Shown: positions 5,373 through 21,518 of the stretch, in pieces | How the letters are laid out: each line of letters opens with the position of its first letter | How positions within the stretch are numbered: the first letter of the stretch is position 1 | Assembly: GCA_036012755.1 (NCBI GenBank) | Contig: DASCPX010000211.1 | Span: 1-64,000, forward strand | Direction: 5' to 3' | Source: Myxococcota bacterium | GTDB taxonomy: Bacteria > Myxococcota_A > UBA796 > CAJQPC01 | Length of the DNA: 64,000 nucleotides | The notes under the pieces: generated by a model | Databases searched by the model: none | The model's input: the letters and a program-made list of their open reading frames with translations, nothing else | What the model was told of the DNA's origin: nothing | Program-made: the position numbers and the translations under genes

Positions 5373-5828
5373 TCAGCCGCGCTTCCCGAGCGACTTGTCC
5401 CGGTTGTGGGCCTTCGCCTTGAGCGCCTCGCGCCTGTCCCCCTTCTTACGGCCCCTGGCGAGCGCGAACTCCAGCTTCACCCAGGGTCCTCGGAACATCA
5501 GGGTCAACGGGACCATGGTCAGCCCCTTCTGCTGGATCGCCACGTTGAGCTTCTTCAGCTCCTTCTTGTTCAGGAGGAGCTTCCGGGGGCGGTCGGCCTC
5601 GTGGTTGTTGTAGGAGGCCTGCTCGTAGATGGGCAGGTTCGCTCGGAGCAGCCAGGCCTCTCCACCCTTGATCTTGATGTAGGCCTGGGCGATCGAGCCC
5701 TTGCCGTTTCGGAGGACCTTGACCTCTGACCCGGTCAACACCATCCCGGCCTCGTAGCGGTCGAGGAGCTCGTAGTCGTGGCGCGCCTTCTTGTTCCGCG
5801 CGATCACCTTCGTGCGATCCTTGGACAC
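5373..5828 (-). CDS. smpB: SsrA-binding protein SmpB
   Basis: IARNKKARHDYE, EAGMVLTGSEVK, RPRKLLL, GLTMVPL, LARGRK; GTG start at 5828. Confidence 0.96.
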   Translation of the reverse strand: MSKDRTKVIARNKKARHDYELLDRYEAGMVLTGSEVKVLRNGKGSIAQAYIKIKGGEAWLLRANLPIYEQASYNNHEADRPRKLLLNKKELKKLNVAIQQKGLTMVPLTLMFRGPWVKLEFALARGRKKGDRREALKAKAHNRDKSLGKRG

Positions 5829-5903
5829 GATCTCGGCTCCCGGGGCGCGATCTCTAGCGTCTGGGCGGCTTGAGGGCGAGGCTCCCGTCTTTTTTCTCAG
5901 ATG

Positions 5904-5927
5904 GTGGTCCAAAGTGGTGGACCGTGG
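5904..5927 (+). promoter_or_regulatory. MraZ-binding direct repeats
   Basis: GTGG at 5904, 5914 and 5924 (GTGG-N6 with 10-bp phase) upstream of mraZ, the known MraZ operator architecture. Confidence 0.75.
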
Positions 5928-6013
5928 AGAGGGCGAACGGTAAGGTTGCTGCGAAATGGAGAGATTGTGGAGAGGGAAGGGGCGGCAAGGCCGGCTCCCT
6001 CTCTCCATCGCGG

Positions 6014-6457
6014 ATGCTCGGAGAACGTTGCCAGGTCACCACGTCGCTCGATGCCAAGGGCCGTCTCGGTCTGCCGGCGAAGCTGCGGCACAGGCTGAAG
6101 GAAGAAGGGATAAATGCGCTCGTGCTCACATGCGTTGACGGCGGGATCAAGGCCTTCAGCCTTGCATACTGGCGTGAGCACGTCGAGCAGCCCATGGCTC
6201 ACCACGGTCCCTTCGATCGCGGCGCTCGGCCCTATCTCTACAGCGTGCTCGCCGACGCCGAAGACGCTGGAGTCGATGGACAGGGACGCGTCCGGATTCC
6301 GGCGCGACTTCGGACCCAGGCAGCTCTCACGAGGGAGTGCGTCGTCATCTCCATCATGGAGTGGATCGAAGTCTGGAGCCCTGAGCGGTGGAAGGTGGCG
6401 CAGGACGCAGCGCGCGAGGAATACACCCGCCAGGCCAGTGCCCAGCCCGCACCGTAG
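6014..6457 (+). CDS. mraZ: Transcriptional regulator MraZ
   Basis: SLDAKGRLGLPAKLR and VDGQGRVRIPARLR repeats, IEVWS; first gene of dcw. Confidence 0.93.
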   Translation: MLGERCQVTTSLDAKGRLGLPAKLRHRLKEEGINALVLTCVDGGIKAFSLAYWREHVEQPMAHHGPFDRGARPYLYSVLADAEDAGVDGQGRVRIPARLRTQAALTRECVVISIMEWIEVWSPERWKVAQDAAREEYTRQASAQPAP

Positions 6458-7319
6458 CGTCCTTCTCGAAGAGACCATCCAGCTCCTGGACGTGGCCCCG
6501 GGCATGCGGATCCTGGACTGCACGCTGGGTTGGGGCGGCCACTCGGAGCGCCTCCTGGAGACGGGCGCGACCGTGGTGGGCATCGACCGCGACCCCGACG
6601 CAATCGAAGCCTCCACCCTGCGTCTCGCTGGCTACGGCGAGCGCTTCCGGGCGATCCGAGCTCGCTTCTCCACATCTCTCCACCGTCTCGACGAGCCGGT
6701 GGACGGGCTCGTCGCTGACCTTGGAGTCAGCTCTCCCCAGCTGGACCGCGGCGAGCGTGGCTTCAGCTTCCGCTACGACGCCCCCCTCGACATGAGGATG
6801 GGGCGAGATGGCCGGACCGCCGCCGAGCTCATCGAGGACTCTGATGTCTCCTCCCTGGCTCGCATCCTCCGCAGCTACGGCGAGGAGAACCAGGCACTGC
6901 GAATCGCGAAGGCCATCAAGAAGATGGGCCCTTCGACCACGGGTGAGCTCGCGCAGCTCGTCGAGGATCTCCTCGGCCGCCGCGGACGCATCCATCCCGC
7001 GACGAAGACCTTTCAGGCTCTTCGAATTGCGGTCAACGACGAGATGGGCGAGCTCGAAGCCCTTCTCGGGGTCCTGCCCGAGCTGCTGAGGAGCGGCGGC
7101 CGGGCGGCCATCATCAGCTTCCATTCGCTGGAGGACCGCATGGTCAAGCAGCGCTTCAGGGAGCTGTCGGGCATCGGCACCGAAAAGGACCCCTATGGGA
7201 ACCCCGTGGAGCCCCCCCTTGGGCGGCTCGTCACCAGGAAGCCGGTGACCTCGAGTGATGACAACCCCCGGGCGCGTTCTGCGCGCCTGAGGGTCTGGGA
7301 GAAGCGGTCCCCCCGATAG
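6438..7319 (+). CDS. rsmH: 16S rRNA m4C1402 methyltransferase RsmH
   Basis: HRSVLLEE, DCTLGWGGHS, DLGVSSPQLD, HPATKTFQALRIAVN, SFHSLEDR, NPRARSARLR. Confidence 0.96.
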   Translation: MPSPHRSVLLEETIQLLDVAPGMRILDCTLGWGGHSERLLETGATVVGIDRDPDAIEASTLRLAGYGERFRAIRARFSTSLHRLDEPVDGLVADLGVSSPQLDRGERGFSFRYDAPLDMRMGRDGRTAAELIEDSDVSSLARILRSYGEENQALRIAKAIKKMGPSTTGELAQLVEDLLGRRGRIHPATKTFQALRIAVNDEMGELEALLGVLPELLRSGGRAAIISFHSLEDRMVKQRFRELSGIGTEKDPYGNPVEPPLGRLVTRKPVTSSDDNPRARSARLRVWEKRSPR

Positions 7320-7378
7320 CAGACCCCAACCAGCAGAAGTAGCAGCGGAACGAAGCGGAAGTGGCAGCGGAGGAAGCG

Positions 7379-7702
7379 ATGGACAGAGGGCGTCAGCTCA
7401 CGCGGGCCTGGGTCGGGTACCCGAACCGCCCCTTCGTCGGACTCTCGCTGACGGGGGTCGTGCGCTACCTCGCGTACGCCGCTCTGCTCATCGCGTCGCT
7501 GATGTTCTACACGTGGTCTCGAGTCGATGTGCGGGCAACGGCCGCAGCGCTGGAGGGTGCGCAGCTGGAGCTCAGCGAGCTCCGGACCGAGCAGGACCGC
7601 CTCGAGCTCGAGCTGGCGACTCGGCGTGATCTGGCTCGCGTTGGCGGAACGACCGAGGGCCTGGCCCTGATCTCCGAGGTGAAGGTGGTGGAGGTCCCGT
7701 GA
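7379..7702 (+). CDS. ftsL: Cell division protein FtsL
   Basis: One TM helix plus leucine-rich coiled coil (LRTEQDRLELELAT), between rsmH and ftsI. Alternative GTG start at 7361. Confidence 0.8.
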   Translation: MDRGRQLTRAWVGYPNRPFVGLSLTGVVRYLAYAALLIASLMFYTWSRVDVRATAAALEGAQLELSELRTEQDRLELELATRRDLARVGGTTEGLALISEVKVVEVP

Positions 7703-9663
7703 GCCGCCCGGACCTGGATCTGGTCCTCAGCCGTGCGCGGTACCGCGCCGCGGTGGTCGGTGCTCTGGTCGCCGTCGGGTACGTGATCCTGGCCATCCGC
7801 GCCACGCCGCTCATGTTGCTGGAAGACGAGCGGCTCCAGGCGCTGGCCGCCTTGCAGTTCCAGCAGGCCGTGACGGTGCGCGCACCCCGTGGAGACATCT
7901 TCGCGCGGGACGGCACGCTGCTCGCCACCACCGTCTCGATGCCGAGCGTGCATGCCGATCCGAGCGTGATCGACTCCGAGGACGTCCCTGCCCTCAGCCG
8001 GCAGCTCGCCGAGGTCCTGGGCAAGGACGCCGAGGACATCCAGAGGCAGCTGAGTCGCACCAACCGGCGGGACGTCACCCTCGCCGCCCAGATCACTCCG
8101 GAGATCGAGGACGCCGTCGAGGCGCTCGACCCCGGCAACGCCATCTGGACGCCCGACCAACCTGCTCGGTTCTACCCGTCGCGCACCCTGGCCGCCCAGG
8201 TCCTGGGTGTCACGAGCCACGATGGTCGCGGGTTGGAGGGTCTGGAGGCGGCCCTCGACGAGCCTCTGCGCGGGAGCATCTTCAGGTACGTGCAGCAGCG
8301 GGATCGCCGTGGTCGCGCGATCTCCTTCGAGCTCGAAGCTCGCAGCCGGGCGCTCGCTGGTGGAACGGTCACCCTGACCCTGGACCCCTTCGTCCAGACC
8401 GCCGCGGAGGCCGCCCTCGACGAGCTCGTCGAGCGAAGCGCACCCCTGTCGGCCACAGCGGTCGTGATCGACGTGGAGACCGGCCAGATCCTCGCCGTCG
8501 CCAATCGTCCCGTGAGCAACCCGAACGATCGTCGCGCCCGGACCGCGGAGGGCCTGCGCAACCACGCGATCGGCGACGCCCACGAGCCCGGCAGCGTGTT
8601 GAAGCCCTTCGTCATCGCGCTCGCCGTGGACGATGGCATCGTCCAGCCGGACACGCTCATCGACTGTGAGGACGGTGCCTGGCGCCTCGGCCGCAACACC
8701 ATCCGCGATGACCACCCCCACGGTGTCGTGACGCTGACCGAGGTCGTGAAGTACAGCTCCAACGTCGGCACGGCCAAGGTAGCGTTCCAGCTCGGAGCCC
8801 ACGAGGTCGTCGCGGGGCTGCAGGAGTTTGGCTTCACGCAGGCAACCGGCGTCACCATGCCCGGCGAGGTCCGCGGCTTCCTTCGTGATCCCGACCGCAT
8901 CAAGCCGATCGAGCTCGCGACCACCGCCTTCGGCCAGGGCATGACCGCCACCGCTCTCCAGCTGGCCTCGGCGCTGCAGGCCCTCGGAAACGACGGCGTT
9001 CGACTCCAGCCGATCCTCGTCAGCCGCATCGAGGACCGGCACGGGCGGCTCGAGTTCGAGGCACGGACAGAGGTCCTTGGGCAGCCGATCAGCGCCGAGA
9101 CCGCCCGGACCACCGTCGACATGATGGCCACCGTCTTCGAGGACGGCGGGACTGGCCAGCGTGTGCGTGTGCCTGGCTACACCGCAGCCGGAAAGACCGG
9201 GACTGCCCAGAAGGTCGTCGACGGCGTCTACTCGCCGACTGCCCGCGTCTCCTCCTTCGTCGGCCTGGTTCCTGCCAGCGAGCCCCGCCTCGCCATCGTG
9301 GTCATGGCCGACACCCCGACCGAAGGCAGCCGCTACGGCGGCACGGTCGCCGGCCCGGCCTTCCGCGACATCGCCCAGGCCTCCTTGCGCTACCTGGGTG
9401 TTCCCGAGGATCGCGTGGACGAGGACGAGACCGTCGAAACGGTCCCGAGACTCGCCGCGGCGCCGGGGGCAGAGCTGACCTGGACCGAGGACGGCCTCCG
9501 TGTGCCGGACTTCTCGGGCATGTCTATGCGCGACTCGCTCGCCTCCGTGGAGGGCTCGGGGCTTGCCCTGGCGCTCCTCGGAAGCGGAGCGGTGAGCGCC
9601 CAGTCCCCGGCTCCGGGGACAGTGGTCCTGCCGGGTGACCGGCTGGTCCTTCGCTTCGACTGA
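7699..9663 (+). CDS. ftsI: PBP3/FtsI transpeptidase with C-terminal PASTA domain
   Basis: APRGDIFARDG, EPGSVLKP (SxxK), YSSNVG (SxN), GKTGTAQK (KTG), VPDFSGMS (PASTA). Confidence 0.95.
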   Translation: MSRPDLDLVLSRARYRAAVVGALVAVGYVILAIRATPLMLLEDERLQALAALQFQQAVTVRAPRGDIFARDGTLLATTVSMPSVHADPSVIDSEDVPALSRQLAEVLGKDAEDIQRQLSRTNRRDVTLAAQITPEIEDAVEALDPGNAIWTPDQPARFYPSRTLAAQVLGVTSHDGRGLEGLEAALDEPLRGSIFRYVQQRDRRGRAISFELEARSRALAGGTVTLTLDPFVQTAAEAALDELVERSAPLSATAVVIDVETGQILAVANRPVSNPNDRRARTAEGLRNHAIGDAHEPGSVLKPFVIALAVDDGIVQPDTLIDCEDGAWRLGRNTIRDDHPHGVVTLTEVVKYSSNVGTAKVAFQLGAHEVVAGLQEFGFTQATGVTMPGEVRGFLRDPDRIKPIELATTAFGQGMTATALQLASALQALGNDGVRLQPILVSRIEDRHGRLEFEARTEVLGQPISAETARTTVDMMATVFEDGGTGQRVRVPGYTAAGKTGTAQKVVDGVYSPTARVSSFVGLVPASEPRLAIVVMADTPTEGSRYGGTVAGPAFRDIAQASLRYLGVPEDRVDEDETVETVPRLAAAPGAELTWTEDGLRVPDFSGMSMRDSLASVEGSGLALALLGSGAVSAQSPAPGTVVLPGDRLVLRFD

Positions 9664-10137
9664 AGCGCGTTCTTTTTCATCCCCTCATCCGTCTCGAAGC
9701 CTCATCTCACGTCCTGTGAGGTGGATCGTCTCCCCGCCCGGCCTCGCGCGGGCCTCGGGGGCGCGGCACCACCGGTCGCCTTGCAATGGCGCCCTCCTTG
9801 GGAACCCCTCCGGACCTCCTGGTCCACTCCCACTCGTCCTTCTGTGACCCGTGTTGTCCGCTGTCGCCGCTATCGCTGTTGTTGTTGCCCGCCGCTGAAG
9901 AAGATGCTGGACCTGGAACCCCGGGGTCCGCGCGTGGTCCCTCCCCCCTTCGAGGGGGAGTCGCTGCGGAGACGTCACATCCGAGCCATCTGGGCTCGTG
10001 GACTCGAGACAAGCAAGGCATGGCGGTGCCCCTCTGGGAATGGCCCGGACAGAGTTGTTCTTCCCTTTTTTCCGCGTGACTCCCTGGACCCCCGAGGGGC
10101 GCCGCTCGCCCTTGCACTTCCCCCACCAACCCCTCCA
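9664..10137. other. Long structured non-coding spacer between ftsI and murE (candidate regulatory RNA)
   Basis: 474 bp in an otherwise overlap-coupled operon; several hairpins (9706-9720, 9812-9825, 9941-9960); no convincing protein in any frame. Confidence 0.5.
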
Positions 10138-11553
10138 ATGCTCCTCAGCGACCTGCTCTCCCAGGTCGATCACCGCCTGCTGTACGGTTCCGTCGACCGC
10201 CCGATCACCGCCCTGACCCAGGACTCCCGCGAGGCCGGCCCAGGCTCGGTCTTCGTCGCGATCCGAGGTCTGCGCGTGGACGGTCACCGCTTCGTTCCGA
10301 GCGTCGAGGCCGAGGCGGTGGTCGTCGAGCGGCCCGTCGAGGCTCCGGCCGGCGTGACCGTGGTCGAGGTCGACGACACGCGCCTGGCGCTGGCGCGACT
10401 CGCCGCGGCGCTCCACGGCCATCCCTCCGAGGAGCTCGATGTCGTGGGTGTCACCGGGACGAACGGAAAGACCACGACGACCTGGATGCTCGAGGCCATC
10501 GCCCGCGCCGCTGGCCACAAGGTCGGTGTGGTCGGCACTACCGGGAACCGCATCGACGGGCTCGAGCTGCCCACCGCCTACACCACACCGGAGGCACCAC
10601 AGTGGCAGGGGCTGCTCCGCGAGATGGTCGACAACGGCTGCAGTGTCGTCGCAGCCGAGGTCAGCAGCATCGGCCTCGCGGCGAGGCGGGTCGATGGCAC
10701 GCGCTTCGCTGTGGCCATCTACACGAACTTCAGCCAGGACCACCTCGACGCCCACGGCACGATGGAGGCCTACGCCGCAGCCAAGGCGCGACTCTTCACC
10801 GAGTTCGAGATCGGCCGAGCCATCATCAACGTCGAGGACGCCGCCGTAGCAGGCCTGCTGCCCCTGACCATGCCGGTCTGGACCTTTGGTCTGGAGGGGG
10901 GAGACCTGCACGCCCTGGAGCTCGACCTCCAGGTCCGGGGGAGCTTCGCCGCGATGCAGACACCTGCTGGTGTCATCGACCTCTCCCTTCCGCTCCCCGG
11001 CGCCTTCAACGTGGAGAACGCCCTCGCGGCTGCGGGGGCGGCCCTGGCTCTAGGTGTGCCTCCCGAGGCCATCGAGTCCGGTCTCGCCGGCCTCCCACAG
11101 GTTCCCGGCCGCCTCGAGCGCGTGGATCGAGATGACCTCGACGTGTTCGTGGACTACGCACACACGCCCGACGCCCTGGAGACGGTGCTCGCGACGCTGC
11201 GGCCCCTGGCCCGCGGGCGGCTCCTGGTCGTCTTCGGCTGCGGTGGCGACCGAGACCGCCACAAGCGCGCTGACATGGGCCGCCTGGCCTGTGCTGGCGC
11301 GGACCTGGTCTTCGCGACCTCCGACAACCCACGCACAGAGGACCCCGCGGCCATCCTGGGAGAGGTCCGCGCGGGCCTGGACGAGCACGCCAGGGTCATC
11401 ACCGATCGGCGCGAGGCCATCAACGAGGCCATCCGGACGGCAGCGCCGGGAGATGTCTTGCTGATCGCCGGCAAGGGCCACGAGACGACCCAGGAGATCT
11501 GCGGCGTGAAGCATCCCTTCGACGATCGCGTCGTCGCCAGGGAGGCCCCGTGA
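10138..11553 (+). CDS. murE: UDP-MurNAc-tripeptide synthetase MurE
   Basis: GVTGTNGKTT, TTPE, DHLDAH, VDYAHTPD, FGCGGDRD, DNPR (meso-DAP motif), AGKGHE. Confidence 0.97.
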   Translation: MLLSDLLSQVDHRLLYGSVDRPITALTQDSREAGPGSVFVAIRGLRVDGHRFVPSVEAEAVVVERPVEAPAGVTVVEVDDTRLALARLAAALHGHPSEELDVVGVTGTNGKTTTTWMLEAIARAAGHKVGVVGTTGNRIDGLELPTAYTTPEAPQWQGLLREMVDNGCSVVAAEVSSIGLAARRVDGTRFAVAIYTNFSQDHLDAHGTMEAYAAAKARLFTEFEIGRAIINVEDAAVAGLLPLTMPVWTFGLEGGDLHALELDLQVRGSFAAMQTPAGVIDLSLPLPGAFNVENALAAAGAALALGVPPEAIESGLAGLPQVPGRLERVDRDDLDVFVDYAHTPDALETVLATLRPLARGRLLVVFGCGGDRDRHKRADMGRLACAGADLVFATSDNPRTEDPAAILGEVRAGLDEHARVITDRREAINEAIRTAAPGDVLLIAGKGHETTQEICGVKHPFDDRVVAREAP

Positions 11554-12893
11554 CCTTCTCCGGCGCCGAGCTCGCGCAGGCCACGGGCGGACTGCTCGAG
11601 GGCCAGGGCCCTCCAGGGCCCGTGACGACCGACACCCGGCGGCTGGAGCCCGGGAGCTGGTTCCTGGCCCTCCGCGGTGAGCGCTTCGATGGTCACGAGT
11701 TCACCGCGCATGCAGCAGCGGCTGGCTGTGCCGGCATCGTGGTCGACACCTTGCCAGAGGGCTGGTCTCGCGGCGCTGTCGTCGTCGAGGACACCCTGGT
11801 GGCGCTCCAGGACATCGGCCGCTTCGTTCGCTCGGGTCTCCGCTGTCCGGTGGTCGGGGTCACCGGATCTGCTGGCAAGACCACGACTCGGGCCATGACC
11901 GCCGCCGTGCTCCGAGGCCTCGGCCGTGTCCACGCGACCGAAGGGAACCTCAACAACCACATCGGCGTCCCGCTCACCCTCCTCGCCACGCCTCCCGAGG
12001 TCGACGTGCTCGTGCTCGAGATGGGCATGTCCGCGCCGGGAGAGATCGCCCTGCTCCAGGACATCGGCGCGCCGACTGTCCGCCTGATCACGAACGTGGG
12101 CGTCGCGCACCTCGAGGGCACCGGCTCGATCGACGCGATCGCGGCATGCAAGCAGGAGCTCTTCGACGGGGCTCGCCCTGGCGACGTGCTGTTGGTGAAT
12201 GGGGACGACCCACGAGTCCGTGCCATGCCCCTGCCTCCAGGGACCACCTCGCTGATCTACGGATCCGAGCCTGGCTGCGACCTGCGATTGACGCACGTCC
12301 GGGTGGACCCGGTGAAGCTGTCGACCTTCGTAGAGCTCGAGTACCGAGGCCATCGGGTGGCGACGCGCATCTCCAGCCCCGGCCATCACCTGGCCCTCGA
12401 TGCCTGCGCAGCAGCCGCAGTGGGGGCGGCGCTGGGGGTGCCCCTGGACGAGATCGCCGCGGGCCTGGGTCGCTACGAGCCGGTCGGCATGCGCATGCGC
12501 GTCGAGCAGCACGGCGACATCACGGTGCTCAACGACGCCTACAACGCCAACCCGCCAAGCATGAGGGCGGCGCTGCAGACCCTCGCCACCATCGAAGGCC
12601 GCCGCCGCATCGCGCTCCTCGGCGACATGCTGGAGCTGGGGTGGATCGAGAGCGAGGCCCACGACGACATCGCTCGCTTCGCGGCCTCGCTCGAGCTGGA
12701 GCTCGTCGGTCTCTGTGGTCCGCGCATGGGCAGCGCCGCGCCGGAGCTCGATGTGCTGCGGGCTTCGGAGTCCGTAGCCCTCGGCGAGGCCGTTGCTCCT
12801 CGACTCGTCCCAGGCGACGTCGTGCTCCTCAAGGGGAGCAGGGGAGCGCGGATGGAACGGGTGTTGCACTCGCTGTCGGTCGAGGAGGCCTGA
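11550..12893 (+). CDS. murF: UDP-MurNAc-pentapeptide synthetase MurF
   Basis: GERFDGH, VTGSAGKTTT, GNLNNHIGVPLT, NDAYNANP, LGDMLELG, KGSRG. Confidence 0.97.
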   Translation: MTFSGAELAQATGGLLEGQGPPGPVTTDTRRLEPGSWFLALRGERFDGHEFTAHAAAAGCAGIVVDTLPEGWSRGAVVVEDTLVALQDIGRFVRSGLRCPVVGVTGSAGKTTTRAMTAAVLRGLGRVHATEGNLNNHIGVPLTLLATPPEVDVLVLEMGMSAPGEIALLQDIGAPTVRLITNVGVAHLEGTGSIDAIAACKQELFDGARPGDVLLVNGDDPRVRAMPLPPGTTSLIYGSEPGCDLRLTHVRVDPVKLSTFVELEYRGHRVATRISSPGHHLALDACAAAAVGAALGVPLDEIAAGLGRYEPVGMRMRVEQHGDITVLNDAYNANPPSMRAALQTLATIEGRRRIALLGDMLELGWIESEAHDDIARFAASLELELVGLCGPRMGSAAPELDVLRASESVALGEAVAPRLVPGDVVLLKGSRGARMERVLHSLSVEEA

Positions 12894-13972
12894 TGCTCTA
12901 CCACCTGCTCGTGCCGCTGGCAGACACCCACATCGTCTTCAACGTCTTCCGGTACACCTCCTTCCGGACGGCCTGGGCGATGATCACCGCCCTGTTGTTC
13001 TGCTACTTCGTCTTCCCCGCGTTCATTCGCTGGATGAAGGCGCGCAAGCTGGCGCAAGTCATCAGGGACGACGGCCCTCAGGAGCACATCGAGGCCAAGG
13101 TCGGCACGCCCACTATGGGGGGGGTGCCGATGATCCTCGGCATCGCCCTGGCGGGTCTCCTCTGGTGCCGGCTCGACCAGCCCATCGTCTGGATCGCGCT
13201 CGCGGTGTTGCTCGGCTACGGCGTCATCGGCTTCGTCGACGACTGGAAGAAGGTCATGGGGCGCTCCAGCGACGGCCTCGCCGGACGTTGGAAGATCGTC
13301 GGCCAGCTGGTCTTCGGCGGCGTCCCGCTGGCTCTCGGCGTGCACTTCGGTGTGGTCTCGACAGAGGTCTGGCTGCCCTTCTTGAAGGGCGTCGCCATCG
13401 ACATCTGGTGGTTCTACCTGCTGTTCGGGCTGTTCATCCTGGTCGGAACCAGCAACGCCGTGAACCTCACCGATGGCCTGGACGGCCTGGCCATCGGGCC
13501 GATAATGACCAGCGCCGTGACCTTCGCCATCCTCGCCTACATCGCGGGACACGCCGGCTTCTCCGACTACCTCAACGTGCCGGGGGTCGAAGGCTCGGGT
13601 GAGCTGACCATCATCTGCATGGCGGTGGTCGGCGCCGGGCTCGGCTTCCTCTGGTTCAACACCTACCCCGCCCAGATCTTCATGGGCGATGTCGGCAGTC
13701 TCTCCCTCGGCGGGCTCCTCGGCATCCTCGCCATCCTCACCAAGCAGGAGATCCTCCTGGCCCTGGTGGGTGGCATTTTCGTGCTCGAGGCGCTGAGCGT
13801 GATCATCCAGGTCGGCAGCTTCAAGCTGACCGGGAAACGCGTCTTCGCCATGGCCCCCATCCACCATCACTACGAGAAGAAGGATTGGTCAGAACCAAAG
13901 ATCATCGTCCGTTTCTGGATCATCAGCATCTTGCTCGCCCTCGTCGCGCTCACGACGTTGAAGCTACGATGA
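12893..13972 (+). CDS. mraY: Phospho-MurNAc-pentapeptide transferase MraY
   Basis: KVGTPTMGG, SNAVNLTDGLDGL, FMGDVGSL, MAPIHHHYE. Confidence 0.97.
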   Translation: MLYHLLVPLADTHIVFNVFRYTSFRTAWAMITALLFCYFVFPAFIRWMKARKLAQVIRDDGPQEHIEAKVGTPTMGGVPMILGIALAGLLWCRLDQPIVWIALAVLLGYGVIGFVDDWKKVMGRSSDGLAGRWKIVGQLVFGGVPLALGVHFGVVSTEVWLPFLKGVAIDIWWFYLLFGLFILVGTSNAVNLTDGLDGLAIGPIMTSAVTFAILAYIAGHAGFSDYLNVPGVEGSGELTIICMAVVGAGLGFLWFNTYPAQIFMGDVGSLSLGGLLGILAILTKQEILLALVGGIFVLEALSVIIQVGSFKLTGKRVFAMAPIHHHYEKKDWSEPKIIVRFWIISILLALVALTTLKLR

Positions 13973-15234
13973 GGTCTCTCTCCGGGGCGCGAGTCACGGT
14001 CCTCGGGGCGGCGCGATCGGGTCGCGCCGCAGCGGAGCTCGCTCTGCGCTTCGGCGCGATTGTCGTGCTCAGCGATCTGCGCGAGGACCTCGACGAGCTG
14101 CCAGGCGCCACCTGTGTGTTCGGGCATCACCGGAACGAGGACCTCGTCGGAGCCGACCTCGTCGTGGTCAGTCCCGGCGTGCCCGCTGCGGCGCCGCCGG
14201 TTCGAAAGGCCATCGAGGCTGGCGTAGAGGTCGTCGGCGAGCTCGGCTTCGCTGCCTCGTTCATCGATCCTGGCGTCTCGCTGCTCGCCGTGACCGGGAC
14301 CAACGGCAAGTCCACGGTGACCCACTTCACCGCCCAGCTCCTCGAGGCAGCGGGGGCTCGTGTCTTCGCCGGGGGCAACCTCGGAACGCCGCTGTCGAAG
14401 GCCGTCGGGCTCGACGCGGACGTGCTGGTCGTCGAGGTCAGCAGCTACCAGATGGAGCTCCCCGGTTGTTTCGCGCCGAGCGCTGCCGTCGTGCTGAACT
14501 TGACGCCGGACCACCTCGGGCGCCACAAGACGATGGAGGGCTACGCCGAGGCCAAGTGCCGGGTCTTCGACCGCATCGACGAAGGCGGCTTCGCGATCCT
14601 GCCCGCCGGCGACGAGCTGCTCGCCAGCGCGGCCCGGGGTCGGGGCGGACGGCGGGTCTGGCTGGGTGCCCAGCCCGGCGCCACGATCGAAGGTGACGAG
14701 CTCCTCATCGGCGATGGCTGCCTCGATCTGACCCGGCTCGAGGTCCCCGGCGAGCACAACCGCTGGAACGCCGCCGCCGCGAGCCTCCTTGCAGTGGCCG
14801 CGGGCCGCCTGGTCGAGGACATCGACCTCGCCGTGCTCAGCGGGCTTCCCCACCGCCTCGAGCTGGTCGCGGAGATCGACGGTGTCCGCTGGATCAACGA
14901 CTCCAAGGCGACCAACATCGACGCCGCCGCCATCGGCATCAAGGCGATGAATGGCGAGCTGACCGTCCTCCTCGGCGGTCAAGGCAAGGAGGGAGTCGAC
15001 TGGGCTTCGCTGCCCGTCGGCGGCGCCCGGGTCATCTGCTTCGGTGCTTCCGGCGCCCAGATCCAGGCTGCCGTCGGTGGTGAGCGCGTCCTGACGCTGC
15101 AGGCCGCAGTCGAGCGCGCCCGCGAGGTCGCTCGAGCAGGGACCACGGTGCTGTTGTCCCCAGCCTGCGCCAGCTTCGATGAGTTCAACGACTTCGAGCA
15201 CCGAGGGGTGCGCTTCAAGGAGTGGGTGGGATGA
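13969..15234 (+). CDS. murD: D-glutamate ligase MurD
   Basis: VVSPGVP, VTGTNGKST, EVSSYQ, NDSKATN, LLSPACASFDEF. Confidence 0.96.
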   Translation: MRSLSGARVTVLGAARSGRAAAELALRFGAIVVLSDLREDLDELPGATCVFGHHRNEDLVGADLVVVSPGVPAAAPPVRKAIEAGVEVVGELGFAASFIDPGVSLLAVTGTNGKSTVTHFTAQLLEAAGARVFAGGNLGTPLSKAVGLDADVLVVEVSSYQMELPGCFAPSAAVVLNLTPDHLGRHKTMEGYAEAKCRVFDRIDEGGFAILPAGDELLASAARGRGGRRVWLGAQPGATIEGDELLIGDGCLDLTRLEVPGEHNRWNAAAASLLAVAAGRLVEDIDLAVLSGLPHRLELVAEIDGVRWINDSKATNIDAAAIGIKAMNGELTVLLGGQGKEGVDWASLPVGGARVICFGASGAQIQAAVGGERVLTLQAAVERAREVARAGTTVLLSPACASFDEFNDFEHRGVRFKEWVG

Positions 15235-16367
15235 GCGTTCGCCGCACCTATGACACCGTCCTCATCGCCACGGTCGCAGTCCTGTTGGTGATCGGCCTCG
15301 TGATGGTCCAGTCCGCGTCCGGGCCCGTAGCCGCCGATCGCATGGGCGACAGCTGGCACTACGTGAGGCGCCAGGCCCTGGCGATGGGGCTGGGAATCGG
15401 CGGCTGTGTCGCCCTGGCGCTGATCCCCTACCACTTCATCCGGAGATGGGCGTGGGTGCTCTTCGGGCTCGTCGCCGTCGCCCTGTGTGCTGTCTTCGCC
15501 TTCGACCCCGTCAACGGCGCCCGGCGCTGGATCGGCTTCGGAGGCATCAACTTCCAGCCCTCGGAGTTCGCCAAGGTCGCGGCGGTCCTCTGCATGGCCG
15601 ACTTCCTGGATCGGCACGCCGACCGGCTCGCGGACTGGAAGGTGCTCGCAAAGGCATGCGCCATTCCGGGCGTGCTGATGGTGCTCGTGCTCGCCGAACC
15701 CGACTTCGGAACCACCTGCATCCTCGGTGGCATGGCCTTCCTGACGCTCTACGTCGCCGGGCTGCGTCGGAAGGTCCTGTGGGGGCTCGGAGTCGGTGGC
15801 GTCCTCGCCGCGATCCCAGCTGTGATGTTCGCCAGCTACCGCATGGACCGCTTCAGGGCCGTGCTCGACCCCTACGCCGATCCCGCAGGCGCCGGCTACC
15901 AGATCATCCAGTCGCTCATCGCGTTCCACTCCGGGGGGCTTGTCGGGCGCGGGCTCGGCGAGTCCCAGGCCAAGCACCTCTTCCTGCCCGAACCCTGGAC
16001 GGACTTCATCGCCTCCGTGCTCGCCGAGGAGCTCGGTCTTATCGGCATCCTCGCGCTCATCGGCCTCTACGGCGTGCTGATCTGGCGAGGGCTCCGGATA
16101 GCCCGCAACGCTGGCGATCTCTTTGGCGTGTTGCTCGCGACCTCGGTCACCGGGACGCTCGGCCTGCAGGCCTTCTTCAACCTCGGCGTGGCCCTGGGCA
16201 TCGTCCCGCCGAAGGGTCTCGTGCTGCCCTTCATGAGCTACGGGGCGTCCGCCATCATGGGGCACCTCCTCTGCATCGGGCTGCTCCTGAACATCTCGGC
16301 CAACGGCGCTCCGGTACCCAAGACGCCGCCCATCTACCGCGCCACCGCGACGGCCGAGGGCTTCTGA
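15231..16367 (+). CDS. ftsW: SEDS peptidoglycan polymerase FtsW
   Basis: NGARRW, FQPSEFAK, EPDFGT, GYQIIQS, LPEPWTDFI, LPFMSYG. Confidence 0.96.
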   Translation: MSVRRTYDTVLIATVAVLLVIGLVMVQSASGPVAADRMGDSWHYVRRQALAMGLGIGGCVALALIPYHFIRRWAWVLFGLVAVALCAVFAFDPVNGARRWIGFGGINFQPSEFAKVAAVLCMADFLDRHADRLADWKVLAKACAIPGVLMVLVLAEPDFGTTCILGGMAFLTLYVAGLRRKVLWGLGVGGVLAAIPAVMFASYRMDRFRAVLDPYADPAGAGYQIIQSLIAFHSGGLVGRGLGESQAKHLFLPEPWTDFIASVLAEELGLIGILALIGLYGVLIWRGLRIARNAGDLFGVLLATSVTGTLGLQAFFNLGVALGIVPPKGLVLPFMSYGASAIMGHLLCIGLLLNISANGAPVPKTPPIYRATATAEGF

Positions 16368-17740
16368 TGTTTCGAGGCAAGGTCCACCACATCCACTTCG
16401 TCGGCATCGGCGGAGCTGGAATGAACGGCATCGCAGAGGTCCTGCTGAACCTCGGCTTCGCGGTGACCGGGAGCGATCTGCGCGCGAGCGCCAACGTGCT
16501 GCGACTACGCAAGCTGGGCGCCCGGGTGCACATCGGGCACGCACCGGGAAACCTCGGAGAGGCCGACGTCCTCGTGAAGTCGACCGCGGTGGGGCTGGAG
16601 AACCCAGAGGTCCGCGCAGCCCTCGCCCGCCAGATCCCGGTCATTCCGCGCGCCGAGATGCTCGCCGAGCTCATGCGCATGAAGTACGGCATCGCCGTCG
16701 CCGGTACGCACGGAAAGACCACGACCACCTCGATGCTCGCGCGGGTCCTGGGCGAGGGCGAGCTCGACCCCACCATCGTCATCGGTGGCAAGCTCGAGGC
16801 CATCGGAAGCTACGCGAAGCTCGGGGGAGGGGACTTCCTCGTGGCAGAGGCTGACGAGTCCGACGGCTCCTTCATGTACCTGGCCCCCACGGTCGCGGTG
16901 GTGACGAACATCGACCCGGAGCACCTCGACCACTACGGGGACTTCGAGACGCTCAAGCAGACCTTCGTGCGTTTCGTGAACAAGGTGCCGTTCTTCGGCT
17001 TCGGCGTCGTCTGCCTGGACCACCCGGTCGTGCAGGAGCTGCTGCCGGAGATGCGCCGGCGTGTCGTGACCTACGGCCTCACCCGGCAGGCCGGACTCCG
17101 TGCGGACGAGCTCGTCGCCGCCGGCCTGAGCACGAGCTTCACGGTGCTCCACGACGACGAGGTGCTCGGCCGCGTCTCGATGAACATGCCGGGGAGGCAC
17201 AACGTGCAGAACGCCCTCGCGGCGATCGCGACGGGGCTGGAGCTGGACATCCCCTTCGAGACGATGGCCGTGGCGCTGGACGGGTTCTCTGGGGTGCAGC
17301 GTCGCTTCACCGTGCGCGCGGACGTCGGGGGCGTCCTCATCGTCGACGACTACGCTCATCACCCGGTCGAGATCGAGGCGACCTTGTCGGGGGCACGTCA
17401 GGGCTTCCCGGATCGCCGCATCGTCGCCGTGTTCCAACCCCACCGCTACTCGCGCGTTCGGGACATGGAGAACGACTTCTGCCGGGCCTTCAACCGCGCC
17501 GACCACGTCATCGTCTGTCCGATCTACGCCGCGGGAGAGACGCCGATCGAGGGCTTCGACTCCTGGCGTCTCGCGGACGGGCTCCGCGCCCACGGACACC
17601 GCTCGGTCGAGGCGGCCGAGAGCCTCGGCGATGCCCACGAGCGTCTGGTTGGGGTCTGCGAGCCTGGCGACCTCGTCATCACCCTGGGCGCCGGAACCGT
17701 GAACACACTCTGCGACGGTCTCGCCGAGGAACTCGCGTGA
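16367..17740 (+). CDS. murC: UDP-MurNAc-L-alanine ligase MurC
   Basis: HFVGIGGAGM, AGTHGKTTT, EADESD, DDYAHHP, FQPHRYSR. Confidence 0.97.
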   Translation: MFRGKVHHIHFVGIGGAGMNGIAEVLLNLGFAVTGSDLRASANVLRLRKLGARVHIGHAPGNLGEADVLVKSTAVGLENPEVRAALARQIPVIPRAEMLAELMRMKYGIAVAGTHGKTTTTSMLARVLGEGELDPTIVIGGKLEAIGSYAKLGGGDFLVAEADESDGSFMYLAPTVAVVTNIDPEHLDHYGDFETLKQTFVRFVNKVPFFGFGVVCLDHPVVQELLPEMRRRVVTYGLTRQAGLRADELVAAGLSTSFTVLHDDEVLGRVSMNMPGRHNVQNALAAIATGLELDIPFETMAVALDGFSGVQRRFTVRADVGGVLIVDDYAHHPVEIEATLSGARQGFPDRRIVAVFQPHRYSRVRDMENDFCRAFNRADHVIVCPIYAAGETPIEGFDSWRLADGLRAHGHRSVEAAESLGDAHERLVGVCEPGDLVITLGAGTVNTLCDGLAEELA

Positions 17741-18582
17741 TCCCGGTCAGCCTCGTCCAGGCTCTCGCGCAGGTCGCCGATCTGGCGGTCCGCAGGCACG
17801 AGCCCCTCCGGAGGCACGGCGTGTTCCGCGCGGGCGGCGAGGCTCCGCTCTGGCTCGTCGGTGACACGGAGGAGGCGCTGGTCTCGGCGGCCAGGGCGTG
17901 CCGAGATGCTGGCGTCAAGGTCCGGCCGGTGGACGGGCTCGAGTGGCTGGCACACGAAGGAGGGCTCGACGGCGCCTGCCTCAGGCCTGGTCGCTGCGGC
18001 TACGGGATCGAGCGCTCTGTCGCCGGTCTGCGCGTCGGAGCGTGGCATCCCGCCGCGGCCCTCGCCCGGTTCTGCGAGCGGGAGTCCCTCGGCGGCCTGG
18101 AGGCCCTCGCAGGCTGGCCGGGCACGGTCGGGGAGGCTCTGCGCCAGGGCCGGGTGTCGGGCTGTGCGCGGGTCCTGAAGGGCGTCCGTCTCGGCGACGT
18201 CGAGGTGGTCCTCGACAGCCACGTCATCATCTCGGTCGAGCTCGAGGTGAGGCCAGAGATCTCAGCTGTCATCGAAGCCCAGGGACTCCGGAACATCGAA
18301 CAGCGCCGGGGGGTCGGTCCAGGCCCGGGCCGTGTCTTCGAGGAACCCGGCCGCCAAAGCGCCGCGGAGCTGCTTGCGGACGCCGGCCTGTGCGGGGTGC
18401 GGCTGCGCAAGGCCCGGCTCGGCGTCAGAGAGCCGAACTGCATCCAGAACCTCGGCGGCGCGAGCGCAGAGGACGTGTTGCTCCTGGTCAAGATGGCGCA
18501 GGACCGCGTGAAGGCCCACTCGGGCATCGCGCTGTCAGCCGTCCATCGACCCCGCGGGCAGCGGCGGCGGACCCATGGATAG
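17737..18582 (+). CDS. murB: MurB-like protein, highly divergent
   Basis: Between murC and ddl; EPLRRH..FRAGGEA, GLEALAGWPGTVG, NLGGASAEDV..LV skeleton present but catalytic motifs altered. Confidence 0.7.
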   Translation: MIPVSLVQALAQVADLAVRRHEPLRRHGVFRAGGEAPLWLVGDTEEALVSAARACRDAGVKVRPVDGLEWLAHEGGLDGACLRPGRCGYGIERSVAGLRVGAWHPAAALARFCERESLGGLEALAGWPGTVGEALRQGRVSGCARVLKGVRLGDVEVVLDSHVIISVELEVRPEISAVIEAQGLRNIEQRRGVGPGPGRVFEEPGRQSAAELLADAGLCGVRLRKARLGVREPNCIQNLGGASAEDVLLLVKMAQDRVKAHSGIALSAVHRPRGQRRRTHG

Positions 18583-19507
18583 AGCGAGCACCCGCGTGGG
18601 CGTCCTGATGGGTGGCATGTCCCAGGAGCGAGCCGTGAGCCTCAAGAGCGGCGGGGCCGTCCTCGCAGCCCTGAGGCAGCGGGGCTGGAACACCGTCGCC
18701 ATCGATGTCGGCCCGGACCTCCCCGAGAGGCTCCGGGCGGAGCACGTGGACGTCGCGTGGATCGCGCTCCATGGACAGTTCGGCGAGGACGGCTGCGTCC
18801 AGGGTCTGCTGGAGATCATGCGCATCCCGTACACGGGCAGCAGCGCGCAGGCCTCTGCCGTGGCCATGGACAAGATCCGCACCAAGCGGCTGCTCGCCGA
18901 CACTGGCATCCCGATGCCGGGAGACCGAATCTGGCGTCGGGGGGATGAGATCCCGCCGGTCCGGCTCCCGGTGGTGGCCAAGTTCCCGAGCGGGGGGTCC
19001 ACCCTGGGACTGGCCATCTGCAGGGAGAGAGGCGAGCTGGAGAAGGCGCTGGTCGAGCTCAGCGGACTGGCCAGCGAGGTGCTGCTCGAGGACTTCGTCG
19101 CCGGCGAGGAGATCACCGTCGCCGTCCTCGACGGTGTGGCGCTGCCGGTCGTGGGTATCGTCCCGGAGAGCGGCTTCTTCGACTACGAAGCCAAGTACAC
19201 AGAGGGGCAGACCCGCTACGAGGTGCCGGCGACGCGCGTGTCCCAGGAGGTCCAGCTCCTCGCTCAGGAGCACGCCGCGACCGCCTACATGGTCGTGGGT
19301 CTGTCCGGGATTGCCCGCGCCGACTTCCTCGTCGATGGCGCCGGCGTTCCCTGGTTCCTGGAGATCAACACCATCCCGGGCATGACCGCCACCTCGCTCT
19401 CTCCGATGGCCGCGAAGGCCCTCGGCGTCTCCTTCGAGGAGCTCGTGGAGAGGCTGCTGCTCTCCGCTGTCGTCCACCTCGAACGATACGATCAGATCCT
19501 TGATTAG
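18575..19507 (+). CDS. ddl: D-alanine--D-alanine ligase
   Basis: GGMSQERAVSLKSG, LHGQFGEDG, IPYTGS, FDYEAKY, LEINTIPGMT. Confidence 0.96.
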   Translation: MDRASTRVGVLMGGMSQERAVSLKSGGAVLAALRQRGWNTVAIDVGPDLPERLRAEHVDVAWIALHGQFGEDGCVQGLLEIMRIPYTGSSAQASAVAMDKIRTKRLLADTGIPMPGDRIWRRGDEIPPVRLPVVAKFPSGGSTLGLAICRERGELEKALVELSGLASEVLLEDFVAGEEITVAVLDGVALPVVGIVPESGFFDYEAKYTEGQTRYEVPATRVSQEVQLLAQEHAATAYMVVGLSGIARADFLVDGAGVPWFLEINTIPGMTATSLSPMAAKALGVSFEELVERLLLSAVVHLERYDQILD

Positions 19508-19509
19508 TA

Positions 19510-19544
19510 TTTACTTGTCAAGACCTGTGTCGCGTTGGTACAAA
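19510..19544 (+). promoter_or_regulatory. Putative internal sigma70-type promoter for ftsQ-ftsZ
   Basis: AT-rich gap; TTGTCA (19515-19520) and extended -10 TGgTACAAA (19536-19544). Confidence 0.5.
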
Positions 19545-19547
19545 GAC

Positions 19548-19568
19548 CAGCAGCAGCAGCAGCAGCAG
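19548..19568 (+). repeat. (CAG)7 trinucleotide tract in the ftsQ leader
   Basis: Seven perfect CAG units ending 14 nt before the ATG at 19583. Confidence 0.95.
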
Positions 19569-19582
19569 ACTCAGAGCAGCGG

Positions 19583-20350
19583 ATGTCAATTGTCGTGGAC
19601 CGGCCCAGGGGCCTTCGTTCGAGGTTTCGGAACCTTGCACGCGCAGGTTTCGTCACCGCAGCGCTCACCAGCGCCGGGTGCCTCCTGATGAGCCTCTACG
19701 ACGACGTCGCCAGGGTCGGATCCGTGCAAGTCCACGGCAACGTCGAGGCCGCTGACGTCGGACTGCGCCACCTCGCTGGCGTGCAGGTCGGCGAGAGCTT
19801 GATGTTCCTGGATCTCGGGGACGTCGTCGACCGCGTGGTGGCCCATCCCTGGGTCGCCGAGGCCACGGTCTATCGGGCCTGGCCCGACCAGATCGTCATC
19901 GAGGTGAAGGAGCACGACGACGTCCTGCTGCTGGCACACCGCGGGCTGTACCGGGTCAACAGCTCGGGGGAGCTCTTTGTCCGAGCCCGCAGCGGCGACC
20001 TCGACCGCCCGGTGCTCACGGGGCTCTCCCCGGTGCTCGTCGACCAACACCCCGGCGTCGCTCGCCGCATCGTGCGAGAGGCCGTCGCTGTCGTCGGGGC
20101 CGTGCGCGACTGCTCGGTGTTGTCAGAGGACGAGCTCTCAGAGGTCCACTTCGACCCGGCCCTCGGGTTCACCCTTCGCCTTCGCAACAACAGCGCCATC
20201 CACCTGGGCTTCCAGCCCCCGCACGAGCCCCTCGCTCGGCTGGAGCAGATGGTCGGCGCCGGCCTCGACCTGGCGGTGCCGCACGAGATCGACCTCGATC
20301 TCGCAGGGCTCGCCGTCGCAACCCCCCTCGATCCCGCCAGCGCCTCCTAG
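19583..20350 (+). CDS. ftsQ: Cell division protein FtsQ/DivIB
   Basis: TM plus POTRA ([29 protein letters not shown]), EIDL near the C-terminus; between ddl and ftsZ. Confidence 0.88.
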
Positions 20351-20399
20351 GGCGCCCCCCCCCCCCAACTCTCCTCACTCCTCCCCCCCGGAGCCCTCC

Positions 20400-21518
20400 A
20401 TGACCATCGAACTCGTCGAGAACGAGCTGACCTACGGCGCCAAGATCAAGGTGATCGGCGTTGGCGGCGGCGGAAACAACGCCATCAACACCATGATCGC
20501 CGGCGGCCTGACCGGCGTCGAGTTCATCGCGGTCAACACCGACGCCCAGGACCTGCGTCGCTCCCTTGCCACGCGGCGCTTCCAGATGGGTGCGCAGCTG
20601 ACCAAGGGGCTGGGTGCAGGCGCCAACCCCGAGGTCGGTCGCGAGTCCGCCCTCGAGGACAAGGAGCGACTGAGCGAGCTCGTCGTCGGCGCGGACATGG
20701 TCTTTGTCACCGCCGGCATGGGCGGTGGCACCGGCACGGGCTCCGCCCCCATCATCGCCCAGCTGGCCAAGGAGGCTGGCGCCCTGACCGTCGCGGTCGT
20801 GACGCGCCCCTTCTGGTTCGAGGGCAAGAAGCGTCGCCGCCAGGCCGAGGAGGGCGTCGAGACCCTCAAGAGCGTGGTCGACACCCTCATCACCATCCCC
20901 AACCAGCGCCTCATCTCGATGGCGAACGAGCGCACCACCATGAAGGAGGCCTTCAACATGGCCGACCAGGTGCTGCTCCAGGCCGTCAAGGGTGTGTCCG
21001 ATCTGATCAACTTCGAGGGCATCGTGAACGTCGACTTCGCCGACGTGCGCACGACGATGTCGAACAAGGGCGTGGCGCTCATGGGTGTGGGCAGCGCGTC
21101 GGGTGAGCACAAGACCGTCGACGCCGCTCAGCGCGCCATCTCGTCCCCCTTGCTCGATGACGTCAGCATCGCAGGTGCCACCAGCGTGCTGATGAACATC
21201 ACCGGCAACAGCAACCTCACGATGTACGAGATCAACGAGGCCAGCACCCTGATCCAGGAGGAGTGCCACGAGGACGTGAACCTCATCTGGGGTTGGGTCA
21301 TCGACGAGGACATGGAGGACGAGGCCCGCGTGACGGTCATCGCGACCGGATTCGAGGAGGCCCGGCACGCCGCGCTGCCGAGCGCCGAGCGCCGTGTCGC
21401 CGTGCAGGTCGCGGGCAACCGCCCCGGTCGTCGCGTCCAGAGCCGCGGGCTGCACTCGGGCTTCGACCTCGGCGACGAGGACTACGACATCCCGACCTTC
21501 TACCGCAACGCCGACTGA
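20400..21518 (+). CDS. ftsZ: Cell division GTPase FtsZ
   Basis: [42 protein letters not shown]-terminal DIPTFYR. Confidence 0.99.

Follow-up and report, generated by a model that had tools for sequence, protein, structure and literature searches.

The only RNA-level control of the dcw cluster that we found in the literature searched is UpsM/StsR, upstream of mraZ. According to the accessible text of the reports, UpsM lies upstream of mraZ, ends in a Rho-independent terminator and undergoes RNase E- and Hfq-dependent cleavage (PMC5089854, PMC8266604); it can be processed, and it pairs near the middle of its targets, ftsW and mraY (PMC8266604). Long-range pairing of the aSD-RBS type has been described in B. 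subtilis reporters at distances of hundreds of bases; according to the accessible text of that report, it is generally selected against (PMC12697547). Beyond a few model systems, little is understood of how one long dcw transcript yields differing amounts of divisome and cell-wall enzymes. Were there a second structured RNA, unrelated to UpsM/StsR, where ftsI meets murE, it would represent an independent solution at a new position; the literature listings and article text searched contained no description of an ftsI-murE RNA.

The locus considered here lies in a window of 64,000 nucleotides (the whole stretch of DNA that was analysed) from a Myxococcota genome designated G000. The initial annotation had proposed that part of the ftsI-murE spacer is complementary, in colinear blocks, to the initiation regions of both ftsL and ftsQ, and had named no described element of this kind; a precedent exists in UpsM, a dcw leader RNA of Rhodobacter that pairs with ftsW and mraY mRNA, as described in the accessible text of its report (PMC8266604). 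The claim of two targets, striking as it is, fails once relatives are compared. The lasting result of our study is that the dcw operon has, midway along its length, a candidate structured RNA, and this element is confined to a single family of uncultured genomes, probably of the Myxococcota.

Results

The dcw cluster and the position of the spacer

The source genome comprises 6.7 Mb with 68% G+C, and the gene order in the window is mraZ, rsmH, ftsL, ftsI, a 474-nt spacer, murE, murF, mraY, murD, ftsW, murC, murB, ddl, ftsQ and ftsZ. The features on which the comparison depends are as follows.

7320..7378, plus strand: ftsL leader, a purine-rich GCAG/GAAG/GTAG tract
7379..7702, plus strand: ftsL, named from synteny, a sub-threshold TIGR02209 match (E 3e-4) and Atlas leads
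7699..9663, plus strand: ftsI (PBP with PASTA domain), Pfam/NCBIfam
9652..9677, plus strand: weak stem with a U-run, terminator-like, across the ftsI stop (1 found against 0.5 +/- 0.8 expected)
9664..10137, plus strand: ftsI-murE spacer, 474 nt
10138..11553, plus strand: murE, Pfam/NCBIfam
18561..18588, plus strand: start region of ddl, the third site with strong predicted pairing to the linker (part 9833-9867)
19508..19544, plus strand: promoter-like site before ftsQ (TTGTCA, 18 nt, TG-TACAAA), seen by eye in ftsQ leaders
19548..19582, plus strand: ftsQ leader, with (CAG)7 at 19548-19568
19583..20350, plus strand: ftsQ, Pfam/NCBIfam, the start backed by an alignment with G002 from residue 1

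The gene names used in the initial annotation hold, for ftsI, murE and ftsQ by Pfam/NCBIfam and for ftsL on the three grounds listed; the nearest clusters of FtsL are mostly from Myxococcota. We gathered dcw regions from 32 genomes, and the spacer was complete in 17 family relatives, where its length ranges from 346 to 736 nt. The murE leader is C/U-rich and has no visible Shine-Dalgarno sequence. No sigma-70-type promoter was called in 9500-10300, the minus strand included, and no conserved plus-strand ORF with a Shine-Dalgarno sequence was present in the spacer among the relatives' loci compared. The terminator-like site at 9652-9677 is at chance level and is not conserved in the relatives' loci. 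The promoter-like site before ftsQ reads TATTTACTTGTCAA, with a TA-type hexamer approximately 18 nt on, and by eye it is kept throughout the family and partly throughout the order; a consensus promoter scan made no call for it (19508-19544). RNase III and CsrA are present in the source genome, and Hfq (PF17209) was not found in this genome, which is 96% complete.

Several observations concern the surroundings of the spacer. Within 15231-20400 of the window there is no room for murG between ftsW and murC, or for ftsA between ftsQ and ftsZ, and the ftsQ-ftsZ gap is short in relatives as well. In the stretch 5373-6014 of the window, smpB is divergent from mraZ, and the mraZ leader of G000 and its relatives contains GTGG boxes approximately 10 nt apart, like the MraZ boxes in the accessible text of PMC12957436. 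On the minus strand, from 23839 to beyond 24000 of the window, a 6S RNA-like match reaches 36.2 bits against a gathering score of 46.4, and it is cut by the end of the scanned stretch.

A conserved two-part fold

The fold of the whole spacer outscores 100 of 100 dinucleotide shuffles (z -3.3). Most of it aligns poorly, and its layout is common to the family relatives, with these parts in G000:

9730..9960, plus strand: domain II (about 230 nt), a closing helix of approximately 9740-9761 with 9918-9938 around small hairpins and the linker
9819..9897, plus strand: linker, the variable, poorly aligned, partly unpaired and GCUG/GUUG-rich 3' side inside domain II
10013..10115, plus strand: hairpin D (about 100 nt), a long stem with a large loop, 22 nt before the murE start
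10072..10087, plus strand: near-invariant loop motif CCGCGTGACTCCCTGG, anti-Shine-Dalgarno-like on the plus strand and Shine-Dalgarno-like (10085-10080) on the minus strand

Domain II measures 200-234 nt in 11 aligned genomes. When genomes were folded singly, its closing helix spanned 149-171 nt in six of eight; it was formed partly in G004 and was absent in G006. Both sides have changed in three of its eight consensus pairs, and the covariation term of an unguided RNAalifold run is near zero. The last 45 nt of the linker have a mean pairing below the spacer mean in seven of eight genomes, and the part of the linker that scores best for pairing with other RNA is 9833-9888. The spacers of four relatives (loci L032, L034, L037 and L033, from G001, G003, G004 and G012) have, in their 5' part, an additional domain that includes another unpaired, GCUG-rich stretch; this domain is absent from G000, where a similar word sits inside the linker 9819-9897.

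Hairpin D was compared in 10 genomes over 20 pairs named from our own folds. In this set, for which the structure was chosen by the analyst and kin are not independent, 88.2% of the cells pair, against 81.7 +/- 1.3 in shuffles and 49-62% in slid registers, and 14 cells have changed on both sides, against 5.3 in shuffles (reached in 0 of 500). Two of the five measures are not above the shuffles, namely the number of pairs with a both-side change (30/500) and the number of further pair types (329/500), and unguided RNAalifold returns only 7 pairs. With ends chosen by eye in 12 genomes, the z values of single hairpins range from -1.9 to -6.1, and the fold scores better on the plus than on the minus strand in 10 of the 12; an invariant G-U pair also occurs on the plus strand. 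The compensatory changes and the kept helix spans extend across genera whose MurE proteins are 54-68% identical.

A covariance model of the hairpin (R1) has a single match before murE in 19 of the 22 family genomes, and all 19 place the element between ftsI and murE; the training set held 18 of these 19 genomes, and the held-out G009 (genus g8) was recovered before murE with E 3e-5. The three family genomes missed by R1 also lack a murE N-terminal match. R1 matched 0 of 128 other genomes of the order, and a further model, R2, gave one weak outside match (E 0.039) over 150 genomes of the class. The loop motif is single-copy in G000, and 12 of 22 family genomes carry its exact 15-mer, against 1 of 129 others (G078). 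A strict two-part pattern matched 0 stretches in the genome-contig collection searched, in which a MurE scan returned mostly distant named loci. No Rfam match was obtained in the spacer at E<=1, whether to riboswitches, T-box, EAR, 6S, SRP, RNase P or tmRNA, and one weak match (E 0.24, below gathering) was obtained over the loci of nine relatives; the tmRNA and RNase P of G000 are on other contigs.

Other families (L046, L047, L049, L050 and L076) also have long ftsI-murE spacers, of approximately 190-560 nt, with genus-shared hairpins of their own. The hairpin of G023 resembles hairpin D by eye, and R1 has no match there. Outside the family, three loci (L075, L078 and L080, from G020, G026 and G030) contain spaced TCCAC/CCCAC words in the ftsI-murE spacer, which by eye are reversed MraZ-like boxes.

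Compared across relatives, at the level of sequence and predicted structure, the spacer shows a fold in two parts that is conserved, a loop that hardly varies and a constant place before murE, where the element occurs once. This fold, which is absent from the initial annotation, lends support to the earlier idea of a functional RNA in the spacer.

Complementarity of the linker in the source genome

All six pairing blocks of the initial annotation are present when G-U pairs are allowed, and five have the coordinates and pairings that were reported. The block assigned to the (CAG)7 tract does form 14 of 14 pairs (4 of them G-U), with its register at either 19550-19563 or 19553-19566. The block 9855-64, said to cover the ftsQ start codon, does pair there (3 G-U in 10), and of the AUG it reaches only the three bases themselves.

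Whether this observation beats chance depends on the score used, and the outcome is mixed. By raw duplex energy, ftsL ranks 55 and ftsQ ranks 303 among 5784 starts called by our own gene finder, and dinucleotide shuffles reach the same energy in 134 and 99 of 1000 cases for ftsL and in 51 and 79 of 1000 for ftsQ. A helix-density score without accessibility places ftsL and ftsQ at ranks 66 and 122 of 168 operon windows, which is ordinary. Once accessibility is counted, with our own simplified IntaRNA-like code (not IntaRNA itself), which includes the cost of opening both strands, the claim that the two starts stand above the background does hold: with the whole spacer as the query, 6 of 1173 random starts are better than ftsL and 1 of 1173 is better than ftsQ. 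The ddl start, which was absent from the earlier claim, ties with ftsL (6/1173). With a smaller folding window, the better starts number 2 for ftsQ, 4 for ftsL and 8 for ddl, of 1173.

The complementarity is unusual for G000. Among the other long spacers of the genome (75 run of 108 candidates), 0 of 75 have any neighbour at <= -19 kcal/mol, and the ftsI-murE spacer has three; spacers binding as strongly number 1/75 for ftsL, 0/75 for ftsQ and 1/75 for ddl. When the targets are shuffled by dinucleotides, the score is reached in 6 of 170 cases for ftsL and in 0 of 170 for both ftsQ and ddl. However, the signal is largely one of triplet composition, and the match is mostly a meeting of two kinds of triplet tract, because trinucleotide shuffles of the targets reproduce the scores in 70 (ftsL), 12 (ftsQ) and 3 (ddl) of 170 cases. 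At ftsL, the colinear order of the blocks, on which the initial annotation relied, consequently adds nothing beyond triplet content (70/170).

By motifs picked post hoc, after the sequences had been seen, the ftsL and ftsQ leaders stand at or close to the top for GCAG/GTAG/GAAG density among 1590 co-directional intergenic regions of G000, with the ftsL leader in joint first place, and the spacer is among the top three of the 1590 for GCTG/GTTG/GATG. Some other high scorers in this ranking look like miscalled coding sequence. We rejected the idea that the GCAG/GCUG tracts are generic intergenic filler of G000 since they are rare elsewhere in the genome (again by the post hoc motif), and we rejected the idea that the spacer is a dispersed repeat since blastn gave no second copy (best E 0.06 among the matches listed). 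Among the matches listed, contigs of four DNA runs compared with 7000-20000 had no strain variation that could be used for the three regions. Dense G[CAT][AT]G tracts also occur at C40:47388-47624, C2:3745-4046, C16:99646-99915 and C23:37935-38378 of G000; we take the genes after these other regions to be a DNA adenine methylase-like gene and one for a large membrane protein, and one region presumably lies between dnaA- and dnaN-like genes.

Pairing across relatives

Each relative's spacer was used as a query and ranked against a background of 250 starts of G000, not starts of its own genome, with start positions that were projected from tblastn and may be off; G005 (without ftsL context) and G009 (without ftsI) are outside these counts. 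The dual complementarity is lost although the spacer is kept, with ftsL and ftsQ both in the top 5% in 0 of 11 relatives. Taken singly, 5 of 16 relatives place their own ftsL start in the top 5% and 0 of 12 their own ftsQ start, and the ddl start of the same genome reaches the top 10% in 0 of 12. For three of the five relatives with a top-5% ftsL, the strongest pairing falls in the spacer's 3' tail and not in the linker homologous to 9819-9897. Seed-target complementarity of the kind that would mark a base-pairing sRNA is not conserved (0/12 for ftsQ, 0/11 for both), and cognate partners are not preferred.

The homologous linkers behave unevenly. G002, of the same genus as G000, has GCAG-rich leaders on ftsL and ftsQ, yet its linker ranks 185/400 and 97/400 against them. 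The linker ranks high against its own ftsL leader in G001 (2/400), G033 (3/400), G003 (7/400) and G011 (18/400), and against its own ftsQ in G003 (4/400). The linker of any genome binds most purine-rich ftsL leaders, whatever the genus, and the pairing tracks the composition of the target leader rather than the genome of origin. The GCUG tract or linker persists in genera g4, g5 and g6, whose own ftsL leader goes unbound, and the ftsL and ftsQ leaders switch between GCAG and GCUG types across genera. Covariation between linker and leader is not shown because non-cognate pairs score alike.

The two leaders also have a predicted relationship with each other. At four loci (L037, L038, L072 and L043, from G004, G011, G033 and G008), a pairing is predicted between the ftsQ leader and the ftsL leader of the same genome, with 0-1 of 400 better, and in G033 and G008 this pairing covers the ftsL Shine-Dalgarno sequence. 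Non-cognate ftsQ and ftsL leaders score alike in these four genomes.

Discussion

A proposed cis-acting RNA in the middle of the operon

We believe that the ftsI-murE spacer may be a mid-operon cis RNA that tunes the murE-ftsZ segment, and we give this reading a probability of roughly 0.5. According to this reading, the spacer would be a family-specific structured RNA that is read within the dcw transcript and would act in cis where the mraZ-rsmH-ftsL-ftsI block gives way to the murE-to-ftsZ block. Long imperfect helices are substrates of RNase III. The long helices of the spacer could thus serve as a processing site of the RNase III type or as a protein-binding site, and a step of cleavage or altered stability is purely our inference; together with hairpin D, which lies beside a murE start without a Shine-Dalgarno sequence, they would determine how stable, or how well translated, the downstream block is compared with the upstream block. 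YYG triplets are abundant in the linker, as are YRG triplets in the ftsL and ftsQ leaders of G000, and each tract would stay open because it consists of one triplet type. Opposite tract types would then pair as a by-product, strongly in G000 and not at all in many relatives. The cis-RNA reading does not explain the density of the three tracts, which are among the densest of 1590 regions, the high rank of ddl (3 of 170 trinucleotide shuffles), or the start codons and reading frame on the minus strand.

A possible antisense leader ORF

The last of these points suggests a different reading, in which the RNA is made from the minus strand, from in or near the 5' end of murE, and the loop of the hairpin carries a Shine-Dalgarno sequence and a start codon. 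A ribosome on the first 15-20 codons would open the stem, and the RNA would control expression on the ftsI or the murE side; the linker, read on the minus strand, would resemble the ftsL and ftsQ leaders and not oppose them. The open frame in G000 is the following.

9707..10138, minus strand: antisense open frame, 143 aa, of no family

The most conserved letters of the loop are the Shine-Dalgarno word of the minus strand, and a start codon follows this word by approximately 9-11 nt in 14 relatives, as ATG in G006, G007 and G013 and as TTG in G001, G002, G003, G004, G009, G011, G012, G016, G031, G033 and G005. By eye, the start is in frame with an R-G-A in the stem arm in genera g1, g2, g3, g5, g6 and g8, so that Shine-Dalgarno word, start and frame are found in six of the eight genera with the hairpin, and the frame holds across loop lengths of 6, 7, 8, 9 and 13 codons, for which a rough estimate of chance is 0.01-0.05. 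However, these starts were chosen after the motif had been seen, G000 itself has no start codon after the word, g4 reads the stem arm in another frame and g7 is degenerate. The ORFs range from 16 to 490 aa, and therefore no long protein is conserved and at most a short leader would be. Furthermore, in 10 of 12 genomes the plus strand gives the better fold, the invariant G-U pair is on that strand, and no minus-strand promoter was called. We consider an antisense leader ORF rather unlikely.

A possible base-pairing regulator

The reading closest to the initial annotation is UpsM-like: the linker, within the long transcript or in a processed spacer RNA, would pair around the starts of ftsL, ftsQ and ddl and, without Hfq, would lower their translation or stability, with conservation at the level of tract type and partners rewired between genera. 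The ranks in the top 0.1-0.7% for three genes of the operon, ddl among them unprompted, speak for such a regulator, and 0 of 75 other spacers come near. The high ranks of the linker against its own ftsL in G001, G003, G033 and G011 and against ftsQ in G003 are consistent with it, as are the ftsQ leaders that are predicted to pair instead with their own ftsL leaders in G004, G011, G033 and G008, and the variants within the tracts are by inspection mostly G-U-compatible. Precedents are found in the accessible text of the reports on UpsM (PMC8266604) and on distant aSD-like sequences (PMC12697547). The relatives argue against it, with ftsQ in the top 5% in 0/12, ddl in the top 10% in 0/12 and ftsL with ftsQ in 0/11, with the pairing lost in G002 of the same genus, and with non-cognate leaders bound equally well or better; trinucleotide shuffles reproduce the ftsL score (70/170). 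If the pairing were in cis, the partners would lie 2.4 and 9.7 kb off across translated ORFs, and ftsQ has a promoter-like site of its own. ORFs of E. coli fold mostly separately according to the accessible text of PMC5318159. We hold such a base-pairing regulator to be unlikely. The further proposal, that the open triplet-repeat strand of a structured mid-dcw RNA pairs, Hfq-free, with the ftsL, ftsQ and ddl starts in this species, is in our judgment improbable; if true, it would represent a rewirable network, coded by repeats, in which divisome subunits are balanced against peptidoglycan enzymes and the partners differ between genera.

It is improbable that the spacer has no RNA function and holds DNA-level sites (an internal promoter or a protein-binding array) or slippage-prone filler with incidental pairing, as might be suggested by its poor alignment, its low-complexity tracts that switch type between genera and an invariant word of 13-16 nt that could be a protein site on DNA, in view of the compensatory changes, G-U pairs and helix spans kept across genera, the lack of a called sigma-70-type promoter in 9500-10300 and the rarity of the tracts elsewhere in G000.

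Comparison with known systems

As a candidate cis RNA, the spacer element would work most like UpsM or the EAR element, by analogy, and it appears to be a member of neither because the tests of position and terminator fail and there is no Rfam match. RsaE-type sRNAs, with unpaired UCCC motifs (accessible text of PMC2790875), resemble it in a conserved C-rich, anti-Shine-Dalgarno-like loop and in needing no Hfq; however, no promoter or terminator of its own was seen for the spacer element, and of 111 ten-base complements of the hairpin D loop just 2 fall at start sites, which is about chance by our own estimate of the expectation. Long-range aSD-RBS pairing (accessible text of PMC12697547) is similar in that a pyrimidine-rich accessible sequence faces a distant ribosome binding site in the same RNA, whereas the predicted partners of the spacer, unlike those in B. 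subtilis, are 2.4-9.7 kb off and are not conserved. The EAR element of Bacilli, as the accessible text of PMC8191782 describes it, is likewise a conserved structured RNA in a long cell-envelope operon that acts in cis on downstream genes, an action that the spacer element may share; in contrast to EAR, the spacer element has no Rfam match and no conserved terminator at the ftsI end. With UpsM/StsR of the Rhodobacteraceae (accessible text of PMC5089854 and PMC8266604), the spacer element would share the character of a family-restricted structured RNA inside the dcw transcript. Unlike UpsM, it has no terminator at its 3' end, the only terminator-like site being at the 5' edge (9652-9677) and at chance level. 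Hfq (PF17209) was not found in G000 (96% complete). Pairing with other dcw mRNAs is strongly predicted in G000 and not conserved in relatives. Whereas UpsM is a 5' leader upstream of mraZ, the spacer element lies between ftsI and murE.
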